A stretch of 64,000 nt of DNA from an uncultured Thermoleophilia bacterium. GTDB lineage: Bacteria; Actinomycetota; Thermoleophilia; UBA2241. The notes below the pieces were generated by a model. The model did not search any database. It was given only the letters and a program-made list of their open reading frames with translations, and was not told where the DNA came from. The stretch is from the NCBI GenBank assembly GCA_963735345.1, contig CAVTKL010000013.1, forward strand, positions 103,897 through 167,896, read 5' to 3'. Positions 6,263-51,793 of this stretch are shown piece after piece; the first letter of the stretch is position 1, and every line of letters starts with the position of its first letter. A program made the position numbers and the translations under genes.

Positions 6263-7300
6263 GTGGCTGCCATGTCTTCTGTTCGCGTCGTTCTCTTCGG
6301 CCTTGGTCCCATCGGCAAGGCCGTTGGCAAGCTGGTCCTCTCTCGCGGCAACCTTGATCTGGTGGGCGGCATCGACGTGGCCCCCGAGTTGAATGGAGTC
6401 GATCTCGGGGAGTGCCTGGGCGCACAGTCGACCCCCGGCCTTCGAGTCAGCGCCGACGCGGAGGGACTCCTGGCGGACGCGAGGCCGGACGTCGTCCTCC
6501 ACTGCACGCAGTCTGCGGTCGCGCAAGTCGCTCCACAGCTCAAGACGATCATCGCTTCCGGCGCCAACGTCGTCTCCACCTGCGAGGAGTTGGCGTTTCC
6601 CTGGCACTCCGACGGTGCTCTCGTCGCTGATCTCGACAAGTTGGCTCGCGAGAGAGGCGTCTCCGTGCTCGGCACAGGCGTCAACCCCGGGTACGCGATG
6701 GATGTCTTGCCGCTCGTCCTCAGCGCCGCCAGCCAGCGTGTCGATCACGTCAGCGTCGAACGCGTCCAGGATGCGGGACGGCGACGCCTGCCGCTGATGC
6801 TCAAGGTGGGGGTGGGCATCTCGACAGAAGAGTTCGAGAGTCGCCGGGCCACCATCGGCCACATCGGCTTGCCGGAGTCGATGTACCTCGTGGCCGAAGG
6901 CCTCGGCTGGAAGCTCGACCACACTGAGAGGACGCTCGAGCCGGTGATCGCCAGGAAGCCAGCGCAGTTCGGTGGGATCTGCGTCGATACTGGTAAGGTA
7001 CTCGGCGTCCACGAGACCGTGCGAGCCTTCGTCGACCACACAGAGCGCATCGTCCTCGATCTGCGCATGTACGCCGGCGCGGCCGATCCGCACGATGCCG
7101 TGGCGATCACGGGTCTGCCCGATCTGCGCCTGCGCGTCGACGGGCTGCACGGCGACATCGTGACGGCAGCGGTAGCCGTCAATGCCGTCACCGCCGTGCT
7201 GCGCGCCGGACCTGGCCTGCTGACCATGCGTGACGTGCCCCTCGTTTCCGCGTGTGTGGGAGTCTCGCGGAGCAGTCGAGTAGACCGCGAAACGGTCTAA
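6263..7300 (+). CDS. 2,4-diaminopentanoate dehydrogenase / native amine dehydrogenase family protein
   Basis: FGLGPIG Rossmann motif, VVSTCEEL, LGTGVNPG, C-terminal GDIVTAAVAVNAV...PGLLTM. Confidence 0.85.
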   Translation: MAAMSSVRVVLFGLGPIGKAVGKLVLSRGNLDLVGGIDVAPELNGVDLGECLGAQSTPGLRVSADAEGLLADARPDVVLHCTQSAVAQVAPQLKTIIASGANVVSTCEELAFPWHSDGALVADLDKLARERGVSVLGTGVNPGYAMDVLPLVLSAASQRVDHVSVERVQDAGRRRLPLMLKVGVGISTEEFESRRATIGHIGLPESMYLVAEGLGWKLDHTERTLEPVIARKPAQFGGICVDTGKVLGVHETVRAFVDHTERIVLDLRMYAGAADPHDAVAITGLPDLRLRVDGLHGDIVTAAVAVNAVTAVLRAGPGLLTMRDVPLVSACVGVSRSSRVDRETV

Positions 7301-7353
7301 ACTAACTTCAGCGACTGAGCCATCGAGATGAGTCGGGCCACCTGGGAGAGCGC

Positions 7354-8166
7354 ATGAGGGTCTTCGTTTCAGCCGATATGGAGGGTGTCTCGTCGGTTGC
7401 CGGCTGGCCCGACGTCACCCCTGGCTCACCGGACTACGAGAGAGCGCGCCACTGGATGACCCAGGACGTCAATGCCGCTATCCAGGGAGCGCTCGAGGCG
7501 AACGCAGAACGCATTCTCGTCAATGACGGCCACATGCACGGCCGCAACATCCTGCCGGAAGAACTCGATGTCCATGCCGAGCTGATCAGGGGCTACGTCA
7601 AGCCGCTGGGCATGATGGAAGGCATTGACCAAGGCTGGGATGCCGCCCTCTTCATCGGCTATCACACGCGCTTCGGAGTACGGGACGGACTCCTGGGCCA
7701 TACCCTCTCGCACGAGTGTTTTCGTGACGTTCGACTCAACGGCCGGCCGGTCACGGAGGCGGAATTGAATGCCGCGACGGCGGGGTCGTACGGTGTCCCT
7801 GCGGTGTTGTTCTCTGGTGACAGCGCCCTCGAAAGAGAGGTCAAGGCGTTCTTGCCGGCCGCTCGAACGATCGTGGTCAAGACCGGGCTTGAGTATGAGA
7901 CCGCTGTCCTGCTCCATCCACAGCGTGCGCGGCAACGCATAAGGGAGGCTGCTCGTGCCGCCGTGCAAGGAGCAGCCGAAGTCGAGCCTTACCGGGTGCA
8001 CACTCCCTGTGTGGTGGAGGCCGAGTTTCAGAGGGTCGGCGTGGCCACACTGGCCTCATCCGTGCCGACGGTGTGCCGCACTGGCGACCTCACAGTCCGC
8101 TTCGAAACGGCAGGGGTGCCCGAGGCCGCGAGGTTGCTGAAGGTCCTGCTGAAACTGGGAGCCTGA
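7354..8166 (+). CDS. dppA: D-aminopeptidase, peptidase family M55
   Basis: VSADMEG, VNDGH, MMEGI, FIGYH, HT zinc-ligand motifs. Confidence 0.92.
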   Translation: MRVFVSADMEGVSSVAGWPDVTPGSPDYERARHWMTQDVNAAIQGALEANAERILVNDGHMHGRNILPEELDVHAELIRGYVKPLGMMEGIDQGWDAALFIGYHTRFGVRDGLLGHTLSHECFRDVRLNGRPVTEAELNAATAGSYGVPAVLFSGDSALEREVKAFLPAARTIVVKTGLEYETAVLLHPQRARQRIREAARAAVQGAAEVEPYRVHTPCVVEAEFQRVGVATLASSVPTVCRTGDLTVRFETAGVPEAARLLKVLLKLGA

Positions 8167-8187
8167 CACGAGCTTCCATCTCAAGAG

Positions 8188-9630
8188 GTGCTGCGGATCG
8201 GAGCGGAACAGGTGCACGTGAGGGTCGCTCGGCTCAGCGATGACGAGAAGAGGCTGATCTACGAAGAGGCGCTCGCCTTGCTCGAAAGCGTCGGGATCCG
8301 CATGTCCGGATCGAACTCACTCGGGCTTCTCGCTGAGGCGGGCGCGCGAGTCGAGACTCGGACCGGCGTCGTCCGCTTCCCCCCCAGTCTCATCGATGAG
8401 CTGGTTCGCCTGTGCCCGCGCGAGATCACCTTGGCGGGAGCCCGACCAGAACACGATGTGGTCTTGGCAGAAGGGGCGCCGCCGCGCTTCTCGCCCTCCG
8501 GCTGCGCTGCGTTCACCATCGACTATCTGACGGGTGAACGTCGTCCGTCGACGCTCGACGACCTGCACAAGGCTACGGTCCTGCTGGATGAGTCCCCAGA
8601 GGTGGACATCGTCTGGACGACGGTGTCGGCAACCGATATGCCTCTCGAACGGCGCGAGTTGCTTGAGTACTACACCGTTCTGACACAGTCGCAGAAGCAC
8701 GTCACGCTGGTCAACTGCGCCAGCTCCGCCGGCCCACTGCTTCGCATTCTCGAAGTGCTGTGCGGCGACCTCGACCGCTTTCGCAGCCGCCCGCGTGTCT
8801 CCACGCTGTTCACGGTCGCTTCGCCCTTCCAGCTCGATGGACGCCTGCTGGATCTTCACGCCGAGCTGGCAAGGCACGGAGTGCCGGTCGAGATCTACAC
8901 GGTCCCGCTGGCCGGCGCCACAGCGCCGGTGACGCTCGCCGGAACGGTGACCCAAGGCGTGGCCGAGTTCCTTGGCGCTGCTGCGGCGATGCAAGCACTG
9001 GCTCCTGGAGCTCGTCTCATAATGGGCGCCGGTTCGACCGTGCTCGACATGCACACGGGACAGCTGTGCTACGGCACGCTCGAGACGGGCCTCATGAGCG
9101 CCATGTACACCGAGGTCATGCATCAGCTCAGGATCCCATTAGGTTGCCCAAGCCTCGCCACGGACGCCCGGTACCTCGGGCCGCAGAACAGCTTCGAGAA
9201 AGCCCTCAAGTGCTTCGTGACAACGCTTGCGGGGGCAGACCTGCAAAGCGGCATCGGCGCCCTGGATTCGACGAACTCCCTGTACCTTCCTCAGATCGTG
9301 GTTGACACTGAGATCGTCACGATGGTGCGACGTTTGGTGGGAGCCGTGGACGTATCTCCCGAGACGATCATGCGTGAGATCATCGAGCGCGTCGGCATCG
9401 GTGGGAACTTCCTGGGCGAGAAGGAGACGAGGTCGCGCGTCAAGGACGGGGTGCACTTCGCGCCGACCATCGCCACGCACTTGCCATACGGTGCGTGGAA
9501 GGCCCAACGCAAGGATGATGCCGGCGTGGCCGTTGAACGAGTGGAGCGAATGCTCGCCGGCGGCGCCGCACGCGAGCCCTATCTGAGCCGCGAGCAGCGA
9601 CTCGAGCTGGAGGCGATCTGTGTACGCTGA
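8188..9630 (+). CDS. MttB-superfamily methyltransferase, non-pyrrolysine type
   Basis: LAGATAPVTLAGT; SPFQ; Pyl-equivalent site reads PSLATDAR...FEKA; ERVGIGGNFL. Confidence 0.9.
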   Translation: MLRIGAEQVHVRVARLSDDEKRLIYEEALALLESVGIRMSGSNSLGLLAEAGARVETRTGVVRFPPSLIDELVRLCPREITLAGARPEHDVVLAEGAPPRFSPSGCAAFTIDYLTGERRPSTLDDLHKATVLLDESPEVDIVWTTVSATDMPLERRELLEYYTVLTQSQKHVTLVNCASSAGPLLRILEVLCGDLDRFRSRPRVSTLFTVASPFQLDGRLLDLHAELARHGVPVEIYTVPLAGATAPVTLAGTVTQGVAEFLGAAAAMQALAPGARLIMGAGSTVLDMHTGQLCYGTLETGLMSAMYTEVMHQLRIPLGCPSLATDARYLGPQNSFEKALKCFVTTLAGADLQSGIGALDSTNSLYLPQIVVDTEIVTMVRRLVGAVDVSPETIMREIIERVGIGGNFLGEKETRSRVKDGVHFAPTIATHLPYGAWKAQRKDDAGVAVERVERMLAGGAAREPYLSREQRLELEAICVR

Positions 9631-9690
9631 CTCGAAGAGGAGATCCGCCTGCAGCAGCGTCGCTGCGGACACGCCCAAGAGGAGGAGAGA

Positions 9691-11166
9691 GTGAGACGGA
9701 ACGTGCATGCCGGCCGCTTGCGCAGCGGCGGGCTCAGTCTGAATGTCCTCACGCAGGACGAGATAGAGGACATCCATCTCGCGACGCTCGAAGTGCTGGA
9801 GCACACCGGCGTCTTCATGGAGGACGAAGAGGCGCGGGGACTCCTCGCGGCTGCCGGCTGCCGGGTAGATGCGGAGCGAGGGATAGTCAAGATCCCGCCC
9901 CACATGGTTGAAGAGGCCGCCCGCAGTGCCCCCTCCAAGTTGGTGCTCTGCGGTCGCTCGCCGGACAATGACTTCGTCATGGAGGACGGACGCGTGGGCT
10001 TCACGAGCTTCGGCGAAGGCCTGCGAGTAGTCGACCCCTATACCGCGGAACTCCGCGACTCGACCAAGAAAGACGTCGCGGACTGCACGAGGATCATCGA
10101 TGCACTCTCGGACATCGACGTCGTCGAGCGTCCGGTGGGGGCACACGATGTGCCGCAGGAGGCCGTGCCTCTGCACAACGCAGAGGCGATCTTCGCGAAC
10201 ACCACCAAGCACGCCTTCATCGCCCCTCTCACCGGCTACTTGGCGAGGCGAATGCGAGACATGGCGGTCGCCGTTGCCGGTGGCTCCGACAACCTGCGCG
10301 AGCGGCCGATTCTGTCGTACGTGGTCGCGACCATCAGCCCCCTGAAGATCACGCGGGACGTTTGCCAGATCATCATCGAGGGCGCACGGTCGGGTGTGCC
10401 GGTGCTCGTGTGTCCCAACGCCATGGCCGGCGCCACCTCTCCAGTCACCTTGGCCGGCACACTCGTGACCCACAACGCTGAGACGCTCGCCGGCATCACG
10501 CTTTCGCAAATCGCCAAGAAGGGCGCTCCGGTGATCTATGGCTCGTCCACGACCGCCATGGATCTAAGGCTCGCTTCCGCATCCATGGGCACACCGGAAT
10601 GCGCCCTCCTGAGCGCCAGCGCCGTCCATCTCGCTCGCCGCTACCTGCTCCCCAGTTGGGTCGCCGGTACGTAGGCTGACTCCAAAGTGGGCGATGTCCA
10701 GTGCGGGCATGAGAAGACGCTCACAGGCCTGTTGGCTGCGTTGGCAGGTGCCAACCTGATCTACGGCCTGGGGATGCTCGAGTCGGGTATCACGATGGAT
10801 TTCGGCCAGCTCGTGCTCGACAACGAGATCGCTCGCCTCATCAAGTTCACGGTGGCAGGCATCTCCATCAACGACGAGACCCTTGCGGTGGAGGACATCG
10901 CCCGGGTCGGCTCGTTCGGAGACTTCCTCTCGCTGGACTCCACCTACAAGCACATGCGCGAGCAAAGCATGCCAAAGCTGATGGACCGTCGGGTGCGAGA
11001 GGACTGGGCCTCAGCCGGCTCGACGGACGCTCACACGCGCGCCACGGCCGAGGCCCGACGCATACTGGAGACGCACCAGCCCGAGCCGCTGCCCGAGACC
11101 GTGCTCGAGGAGTTGCGTGCGATCATCCACGAGGCTGAGTTCGAACTCGGCGCGGCGGGCGCCTGA
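9691..11166 (+). CDS. mttB: Pyrrolysine-type trimethylamine:corrinoid methyltransferase (491 aa, in-frame TAG at 10672-10674 as codon 328)
   Basis: ORFs 9691-10674 and 10687-11166 share a frame; junction reads LPSWVAGT-TAG-ADSKVGDVQCGHEKT, matching the Pyl site context of MttB; GANLIYGLGMLE. Confidence 0.9.
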
Positions 11167-11323
11167 CAGCAGGGGGACACGACATGCCAGGCCGGACGAG
11201 GCGTACGTCGCCGCTGGGCTCATCCTCGAGCCCGAGGTCCTCGAGCGGGGCGCGCGCCTCTGCGGCCTGCTTCGAACGGCTGCAAAGGGGTGCCTCAGGA
11301 CATAGCTGACTCTCAACGAAGTC

Positions 11324-11530
11324 TCAATCCGCTTGAGAGTCGACATCTCCACTGAGGGGCGCATACGCGAAGTTCTCCGCGAACCTCTTGCACCAGATGA
11401 CCACTGCATGGTAGGCGTTGGGATCGAGATCGGACGGCAGCGAGTACGTTTGATCGCCGCCGCTGCCCTTCAGCGCCCCGGCATCAAGATAGGCCGCCTC
11501 CTCCTGATCGTCCCAAGGAACCGAGGCGCG
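11324..11530 (-). pseudogene. DM13 domain C-terminal fragment
   Basis: YLDAGALKGSGGDQTYSLPSDLDPNAYHAVVIWCKRF; N-terminus absent. Confidence 0.65.
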
Positions 11531-11698
11531 CACCGTGGGTCGGCCGGACTTGGGAGCGGAGGTGAGAGTCATCCGCGAGCGCGACCATAAGGCGAGGTCA
11601 TCCTCGCCAAGTGAAGTGGGCCTTCGAGCGACAACACCGGGAGCCCGAAAGGGATTCACTCAAACAGAGGGAACCCGATGTCAAGGAGGCAGACCGTC

Positions 11699-12208
11699 AT
11701 GAACCTGGGCCTTCGCGATCTCAAGAACGATGACCTTTCGCTGATCGAGCGGTGGCTACACGCGGATCATGTATGCAGTACGTGGGGAGACCCCGAAGCG
11801 AACCTCCAGTCGCTCCGCGACGCACCGCCCGATGGGAGTCGGCGGGCCATCATCGAGGCGGACGGCCTCGAGGTCGGACTCGTTCTGTGGCAGCACCCGA
11901 CGCGCCGGGAACTCGATGAGGCCGGCCTCTGCGACATCCCGGAGAGCGTCATCGACATCGACATCATGATCGGCGAGTTCGAGGCCGTGGGGTTGGGGCT
12001 GGGGTCGACCGCCATACGCCTCGTCGCCGAGACAGCGTTGTCCGACCCGACGGTGCCGTTTCTGATGGCGTGTGCCCGGCTGGACAACCTGGCCTCCCAG
12101 CGGGCATTCGCCAAGGCAGGCTTCCGCAAGGATAGAGAATTCGACGACGTCCCGAACGGGCGCTATGTACTCATGGTGCGTCACCGTCAGGAGGAGCAGA
12201 TCGCATGA
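11699..12208 (+). CDS. GNAT N-acetyltransferase (AAC(6')-Ib-like fold)
   Basis: WLHADHVCSTWG, IDIMIGEFEAVGLGLG, NLASQRAFAKAGF; AAGGAGG RBS. Confidence 0.8.
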   Translation: MNLGLRDLKNDDLSLIERWLHADHVCSTWGDPEANLQSLRDAPPDGSRRAIIEADGLEVGLVLWQHPTRRELDEAGLCDIPESVIDIDIMIGEFEAVGLGLGSTAIRLVAETALSDPTVPFLMACARLDNLASQRAFAKAGFRKDREFDDVPNGRYVLMVRHRQEEQIA

Positions 12209-41623: not shown

Positions 41624-42008
41624 CGCCGGTCCTTCCAGATAGCCCCGGCCCCCGAGAGCCCCATCCCAGACAGTGCGTGCCGCCGCACCGCTCAGGAGTC
41701 TCGTATGAGGTTTTCGTGCCCGCCGGGCGAGGAAGCAAACCGTTCATGCCGCCTGGTGCCGGCATGCCCCAGCCGGTCCCATCCTGACGCACAAACCTGG
41801 GTCGCAGAATGGCTGCAGACGGCCGATTCGGGGGTCTCGTGGAAGGCTCGCAGGCCACGATTCACCTTCGAATCCAGTCCGGAGGGCTCGAGAACAGAGA
41901 CACGCGGTCTGAGCAAGACGCCCAAGGGACGATGAGTCGTTGCAGTTCTTCACGGCCCGTTCTCGCGGGGTGCTCGTGGCGACCGGCCGCAGAGCCTCCT
42001 GAATATAC

Positions 42009-51717: not shown

Positions 51718-51793
51718 TGGTGGACCGCACCAGGATCGAACTGGTGACCTCCGCCGTGCAAAGGCGGCGCTCTCCCATCTGAGCTAGCGGCCC
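51718..51793 (-). tRNA. tRNA-Ala (TGC)
   Basis: GGGCCGCTAGCTCAGATGGGAGAGCGCCGCCTTTGCACGGCGGAGGTCACCAGTTCGATCCTGGTGCGGTCCACCA; G3:U70 pair, encoded CCA, TATACT upstream. Confidence 0.97.

Follow-up and report, generated by a model that had tools for sequence, protein, structure and literature searches.

The locus described here raises two questions: whether an in-frame TAG in a methyltransferase gene of a high-GC bacterium specifies pyrrolysine (Pyl), and whether the host could decode it. Pyrrolysine is best known from methanogens and from a few anaerobic Firmicutes and Deltaproteobacteria. The gene lies in a stretch of 64,000 nucleotides (G000:C13:103897-167896), called the window below. The assembly (G000) comprises 2,451,485 bases in 14 contigs, is estimated at 93.4% completeness and 3.1% contamination, and has a GC content of 68% overall (66-69% per contig). 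By protein, the nearest named relatives were metagenome-assembled genomes (MAGs) of Thermoleophilia bacteria, at 82% and 68% identity. An initial, sequence-only reading of the window had supposed a probably actinobacterial host, and the GC content and these relatives bear that supposition out. No rRNA was found in the window with Rfam, and no tRNA-Ile in the whole assembly with ARAGORN; a lone tRNA-Ala(TGC) is located at window positions 51721-51793 (reverse strand).

The interrupted frame and its active site

The frame occupies window positions 9691-11166 on the forward strand and contains 491 codons, from a GTG start at 9691 to a TGA stop at 11164-11166. Its sole internal stop is the TAG at 10672-10674 (codon 328), in the context SWVAGT*ADSKVGDVQCGHEKT, where the asterisk marks the stop. 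The ORF list (table 11) splits the frame into 9691-10674 and 10687-11166. Direct reading and that list both agree with the earlier claim of one 491-codon frame broken by a single TAG. The two parts were matched to consecutive portions of the 500-position Pfam MTTB profile (PF06253), namely 30-337 for the N-terminal half and 341-496 for the C-terminal half; when read through the TAG, the gene scored 317.5 bits against this profile, as a full-length family sequence. A database record (P0003) is identical to the 327-residue fragment encoded before the TAG. A promoter and terminator scan of window positions 7000-12000 yielded nothing exceeding the expectation from shuffles. The coordinates of all features are collected in Table 1.

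Table 1. Features of the mttB locus, in window coordinates.
Feature	Position	Strand	Evidence
2,4-Diaminopentanoate-dehydrogenase-like (DAPDH-like) gene	6263-7300	+	Pfam
D-aminopeptidase M55 gene	7354-8166	+	Pfam
Non-Pyl MttB-family gene, no stop, Ala at the Pyl column	8188-9630	+	Pfam MTTB 1e-70; alignment A1
Shine-Dalgarno-like GGAGG	9681-9685	+	5 nt before the GTG start, read from the sequence
mttB codons 1-327	9691-10671	+	Pfam MTTB 1.3e-58; gene callers' truncated protein
TAG, codon 328, putative pyrrolysine codon	10672-10674	+	On X/K334 of PDB 7xcl/7xcm
Rfam RF02510 PYLIS_3 match ("pyrrolysine insertion sequence mttB")	10672-10771	+	67.4 bits (gathering 38), model 1-100
mttB codons 329-491 and TGA	10675-11166	+	Pfam MTTB 7.3e-29
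Possible hairpin GUUGGC-AGGN-GCCAAC, perfect 6-bp stem	10740-10755	+	MFE fold

When all PDB sequences were searched, the best match was MttB of Methanosarcina barkeri (7xcm, E 1.5e-118; 7xcl, 9.5e-118; residues 3-484). Codon 328 was aligned on residue 334 (X in 7xcl, K in 7xcm); the placement of the TAG on the Pyl column, as first proposed, is thereby confirmed. In the portion of the structural report that was available (PMC9842639, describing 7XCL, 7XCM and 7XCN), Pyl334 is the catalytic pyrrolysine, Gly110 and Tyr364 are 100% conserved among Pyl-MttBs, and Gly372 and Thr111 are corrinoid contacts. Met249 is described in the same portion as lining the trimethylamine site and shifting from where trimethylamine would sit, but it is not stated there to be defining. 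By alignment, the equivalents in the window protein are G108 (Gly110), Y358 (Tyr364), G366 (Gly372), E109 (Thr111) and N243 (Met249). G108, Y358 and G366 were kept in 9/9 aligned genus homologs, as in M. barkeri. Thr111, by contrast, is Glu in all aligned genus copies (9/9), and Met249 is Asn in the window gene and its ortholog only. The window gene also differs from that of M. barkeri in having a bacterial host of 68% GC and neither mttC nor mttP beside it. The non-Pyl MttB proteins (glycine betaine methyltransferase, PDB 2QNE and 9YCE) have the same Pfam family and length as the window mttB. Their matches to the window protein (E ~5e-65), however, are far below the 1e-118 obtained for M. barkeri MttB, and the non-Pyl superfamily carries a sense codon at the Pyl column, where the window gene has TAG.

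The Asn at Met249 sets the window gene and its ortholog apart. In these two, the pocket segment NVLSMAMAGGSS is replaced by LVCPNAMAGATS; the other 11 of the 13 aligned genus homologs have N[VI][LV]SMAMAGGSS or a close variant with Met at position 249, like M. barkeri. The residue after Pyl is Ala in the same two genes and Gly in the other aligned genus homologs. Among the N-terminal fragments within the best 120 database matches, Asn was found in 3/76 (the window's own included) and Met in 70/76. The window gene belongs to a four-gene block (window 6282-11152) that is collinear with the ortholog locus (L024 6584-11462) at 77.6% DNA identity, and the non-Pyl MttB gene of this block stands in tandem, 60 nt upstream. 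Pfam searches of the neighbours revealed no corrinoid-protein gene, and the window mttB would therefore need one of the 14 B12-binding proteins matched elsewhere in the genome. Both the Asn and this missing neighbour were counted against the best explanation given below. It is conceivable, if unlikely, that the window mttB represents a rare, conserved Pyl-MttB subtype that may demethylate a tertiary amine other than trimethylamine. If true, the changed substrate would make it the first new-substrate Pyl enzyme since the three methylamine methyltransferases.

Amber codons across the genome and the genus

There were 25 MTTB-family matches in the genome, of which three contained exactly one TAG and the rest were stop-free. 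In the three TAG-bearing mttB genes, the TAG is embedded in the motif SWVAG[TA]*[AG]D[ST]K. Three Dimeth_Pyl (mtbB) matches were also detected, each with one TAG; the frames of all six TAG genes are open, with exactly one TAG apiece. On contig C11, a TetR-type regulator, mtbB(TAG), mttB(TAG), two corrinoid proteins and an ABC transporter follow one another. The two corrinoid proteins are of the two-domain MttC type (B12-binding and B12-binding_2) and are encoded directly 3' of the mtbB-mttB pair. Many of the MTTB and B12-binding matches cluster at C11:115-195 kb and C11:331-369 kb, and methylated amines appear to be a speciality of the organism. One MtmB-family match in the genome is stop-free (L045, G000:C13:19381-20730); it lies outside the window, directly follows a corrinoid gene (C13:18975-19313) and is a non-Pyl homolog of monomethylamine methyltransferase. 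The title of a 2026 paper (PMC13044021) links non-Pyl MtmB homologs to the use of tetramethylammonium and choline.

TAG-bearing mttB genes were found in 51/54 genomes of the genus (237 matches at E 1e-100 or better, up to 15 per genome). All 150 of the 237 matches that were listed carry an internal TAG, and in 145 of them a single TAG is the sole stop. At E 1e-100, no Pyl-type mttB match was obtained in congeners G048, G049 and G065; two of these are small genomes (1.7-1.8 Mb) of 98% completeness. The Pyl column was TAG in 8/8 aligned homologs of the selection analysis, and the first three columns of alignment A2 were TAG in 12/12 sequences. Judged by such comparisons, chance is not a plausible source of the TAG at codon 328. 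The earlier view that an artefactual stop was unlikely gained support from the position of the TAG on the Pyl334 column and its recurrence in the two paralogs and in all 150 listed congeneric matches. Values of dN/dS were calculated by the Nei-Gojobori method with a custom script. In the comparison with the ortholog (L024, 82% identity), the 327 codons that precede the TAG gave a dN/dS of 0.14 and the 163 codons that follow it a dN/dS of 0.25. For seven further homologs, the post-TAG value was 0.27-0.46, with dS near saturation for the paralogs. The frame 3' of the TAG is under purifying selection.

The best 120 database matches consisted of 76 N-terminal fragments and 44 full-length sequences. 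Such genes are thus routinely recorded in annotation as 327-residue fragments. Ten of the 44 full-length matches (P0004, P0005, P0007, P0012, P0015, P0021, P0032, P0075, P0086 and P0099) were aligned; they were 46-59% identical to the window protein and had L, A, W, V or I at the Pyl column. The records of some full-length homologs name Actinomycetes, Thermoleophilia, Thermodesulfobacteriota, Desulfitobacteriaceae, Bacillota and Dehalobacterium. The sense-codon homologs may be descendants of Pyl-MttBs that swapped Pyl out, or the reverse may hold.

The use of TAG as an ordinary stop was assessed in 1364 long, non-overlapping ORFs, which were picked by length and a GC3 heuristic rather than by a gene caller. 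They ended in TGA (71%), TAG (24%, 327 ORFs) or TAA (5%). After all three codons, the next in-frame stop was equally distant, with no excess of back-up stops. With about 24% of genes ending in TAG, the codon is not reassigned across the genome; since it is still a common stop, its decoding must either compete with termination or be under regulation. In another Pyl bacterium, expression of the pyl cassette is reportedly induced by substrate.

The PYLIS_3 match in the window mttB begins at the TAG. The same model also matched the other two mttB genes of the genome and ten congener loci, and PYLIS_2 matched all three mtbB genes of the genome. The start of the match was mapped to the TAG for the window mttB and the contig C11 mtbB; the other four TAG genes have one PYLIS match each. 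The 100-nt PYLIS_3 region folded no better than shuffles (z -1.05; 31/200 shuffles fold as well), and the PYLIS_3 model has only 8 base pairs. For these reasons, the match is read as a conserved coding-sequence signature and not as a demonstrated RNA element. Twelve sequences of the region were 90% identical per column, i.e. too alike for covariation. The candidate hairpin lies 67 nt after the TAG. Its stem bases were invariant in the 12/12 sequences, and its sole variable base is in the loop; there was no covariation. Codons that are rare in this genome occur in the hairpin: TTG in 12/13 and GCA in 13/13 homologs, compared to genome usages of 6% and 4.8%, respectively. Over-used codons were also noted two codons before the TAG (GGT) and four codons after it (AAA).

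Three other accounts of the codon were weighed. The TAG could terminate translation, with the C-terminal 159 residues made separately from GTG 10687, and a GTG-started ORF (10687-11166) is indeed present. However, an invariant Asp (D330) and a nearly invariant Lys (K332) fall within the four codons between the TAG and this first possible restart codon, which argues against two separate polypeptides. There is also no GGAGG-like site ahead of 10687, and the solved M. barkeri enzyme has an unbroken chain across residue 334; a split enzyme was accordingly deemed very improbable. A nonsense mutation or sequencing error in a non-Pyl MttB having Leu, Trp, Val, Ala or Ile at the column was considered because the TAG and sense forms are close relatives, as the full-length homologs attest; one base separates TAG from TTG or TGG. 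It was rejected, as next to inconceivable, because the TAG is conserved (in all 150 listed genus homologs, the 82%-identity ortholog and both paralogs), and the closest solved structure is that of a Pyl enzyme. Genome-wide reassignment of TAG to pyrrolysine has reportedly been described in some archaea recently, and the several TAG-containing genes in one genome would fit it. Against it stand the 327/1364 heuristic ORFs that end in TAG without an excess of back-up stops, and the TAG-interrupted genes that were looked for and found were all methylamine methyltransferases. Such a reassignment is highly unlikely here.

Search for pyrrolysine machinery in this genome and its congeners

The sequence-only reading had noted that neither pyl genes nor tRNA-Pyl were present in the window. 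The same held for the rest of the assembly when it was searched with profiles and ARAGORN: no pylSc, pylSn, pylB, pylC or pylD exceeded the profile cut-off in the 93.4%-complete assembly, which was counted against decoding, and no CUA tRNA was present among its 45 tRNAs. In congeners, the machinery was readily detected. PylS_Cterm was over the cut-off in 24/24 sampled congeners (G048, G049 and G065 were left out of the sample) and in 1/16 genomes of other genera of the class. PylSn, PylB and PylD were each over the cut-off in 5/5 congeners tested, and tRNA-Pyl(CUA) was found in 3/3 loci that held at least 8 kb around pylS.

The gene order around the cassette was compared with the ends of contigs. 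In congener G006, the order is gltX, pmbA, tldD, an ArsR-like gene, an amidase gene, pylSc, pylSn, pylT, a GGDEF gene, pylD, pylC and pylB. In the present genome, contig C2 carries x1378, gltX, pmbA and tldD, and its end interrupts tldD at residue 261 (base 41931 of 41933). Contig C7 of the nearest relative (G057), compared with C2 read back from the C2 end, is collinear over 21 kb or more; the stretch with pylSc, pylSn, pylT and pylC just before tldD in G057 has no counterpart in G000. Metagenome contigs were retrieved with the tldD fragment of G000. Of those whose tldD was 77% identical or more and whose upstream flank measured 5 kb or longer, 9/9 had the order pylSc, amidase, tldD. Five of these nine (L059-L063) end within 1 kb beyond pylSc, and a contig start is found no more than 1 kb from at least 4 of 25 pylS genome matches; in this lineage, assemblies seem to have difficulty with the locus or to break at it. 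The pyl machinery of this genome most likely lies in an assembly gap beside the C2 end. The missing genes are read in this manner because PylS was present in 24/24 congeners, C2 breaks inside tldD, and all nine metagenome contigs carry pylSc next to tldD.

Sequence spanning the putative gap was sought. No metagenome contig of the same species was found for it, the best match to the genome's own tldD fragment being 90% identical. Reads of four sequencing runs (X1, X2, X6 and X8) were compared with the G057 pyl locus (L049:9000-20000) at 80% likeness, and no piece bridged tldD to pylS; the pylC-tldD part of L049 was covered only by short pieces of Logan contigs, about 550 bases at most, which came from mixed organisms and were not assignable to this species. 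For the other flank of the gap, the G006 genes beyond pylB and the first 16 kb of G057 C7 gave no collinear match in G000. Some peculiarities of the G057 locus were observed. A retron-type reverse transcriptase gene adjoins pylC and tRNA-Pyl on C7 (L049 10055-12235). The pylC itself was matched in two stretches at 206 bits (cut-off 248); a frameshift or a truncation may be present. Long ORFs are much sparser in the first 9 kb of C7.

In G057, pylB and pylD are found without pylC at a second site (C4:842169-844148), beside a tRNA-Ser(TGA) gene. The matching site in G000 (C6:388026-388182) is contiguous and contains neither gene, which was counted against decoding. A DNA search across the genus showed inserts at the tRNA-Ser site that ranged from about 1.2 kb to more than 20 kb; this is suggestive of an integration hot spot at which part of the pyl cassette was captured. 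In 4/5 congeners, pylB and pylD are within about 8 kb of pylS. In light of the hot spot and these four congeners, the G057 layout looks derived, and the empty G000 site is weak evidence of loss.

These data bear on the alternative that the pyl cassette was lost and that the TAG genes are relics, either undecodable and decaying or dependent on pyrrolysine from outside. The initial reading had held that a complete genome lacking pyl genes would make this an undecodable acquired gene. The assembly does lack them, as far as that part goes, and has an empty tRNA-Ser site where the nearest relative holds pylB and pylD; the consequence does not follow if the lack is an assembly gap, as the congeners and the synteny suggest. 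All six TAG genes are open with exactly one TAG each, the post-TAG dN/dS relative to the ortholog is 0.25 (a value for the window copy only of the six), a contig ends inside tldD just where the locus is missing, PylS is present in 24/24 congeners, and the cargo of the tRNA-Ser site varies across the genus. Relic genes are thus considered improbable. The explanation that we find very probable as a whole is a Pyl-dependent MttB whose UAG is decoded with the organism's own pyl cassette, situated in unassembled DNA beyond C2.

Proposed function, host and significance

The window gene is a genuine pyrrolysine-type trimethylamine methyltransferase gene, mttB, and is most likely decoded, as judged from its sequence and those of its relatives. 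It would encode a pyrrolysine-dependent methylamine:corrinoid methyltransferase of the MttB (trimethylamine) type. UAG codon 328 would be read as pyrrolysine by tRNA-Pyl(CUA) charged by a split PylSn+PylSc synthetase, with pyrrolysine supplied by PylB, PylC and PylD; this decoding would probably compete with ordinary termination, TAG being a common stop. The pyrroline ring of Pyl328, aided by Tyr358 and the backbone of Gly108, would bind and activate the methylamine, after which an MttC-type protein, whose gene lies elsewhere in the genome, would receive the methyl group on its Co(I) corrinoid. The substrate is presumed to be trimethylamine or a close tertiary amine.

It had been proposed at the outset that the organism uses the 22nd amino acid and that such use is uncommon outside methanogens and a few bacterial groups. 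The use of pyrrolysine is supported; its rarity was overstated, because Pyl-type mttB of Actinobacteriota and PylRS in two Actinobacteria have already been published. Thermoleophilia is a class of Actinomycetota, and we take the genus RBG-16-64-13 to be placed in it. According to the available portion of a study of Stordalen Mire (PMC10805028), Actinobacteriota MAGs express Pyl-type mttB and mtbB, the genes were recognised by their truncation at the amber codon, and RBG-16-64-13 is among the most active methylotrophs. These MAGs thus share both phylum and gene types (mttB and mtbB) with the present case; the term "pylS" has zero occurrences in the text of PMC10805028, and the portion available contains no pyl-gene analysis. 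In the available portion of PMC9630628, 81 bacterial genomes with PylRS are counted, including "two Actinobacteria", which likewise share the phylum of the window host. The split systems of Firmicutes and Deltaproteobacteria treated in that portion (PMC9630628) resemble those of the congeners, in which pylSn and pylSc are also separate and occur with pylT(CUA) and pylBCD within about 8 kb; the window host differs in belonging to Actinomycetota and in having its cassette missing from the assembly. A literature search for Thermoleophilia with pyrrolysine or trimethylamine, judged by title and abstract and with most subscription journals outside its reach, returned nothing that looked relevant. 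Pyl-type mttB in Actinobacteria is already known; the present analysis contributes one more member, the extent of the trait across the genus and the layout of the cassette.

Near-identical pieces of the gene region were detected in soil, wetland, groundwater and freshwater-sediment data (word shares of at most 0.42 per run). With TAG-bearing mttB in 51/54 species genomes, a genus of high-GC Thermoleophilia carries pyrrolysine genes widely. This suggests that bacteria form a widespread sink for tri- and dimethylamine, one that would be in competition with methylotrophic methanogens, and it offers a natural case of probable Pyl decoding in a genome where TAG ends about a quarter of the genes.
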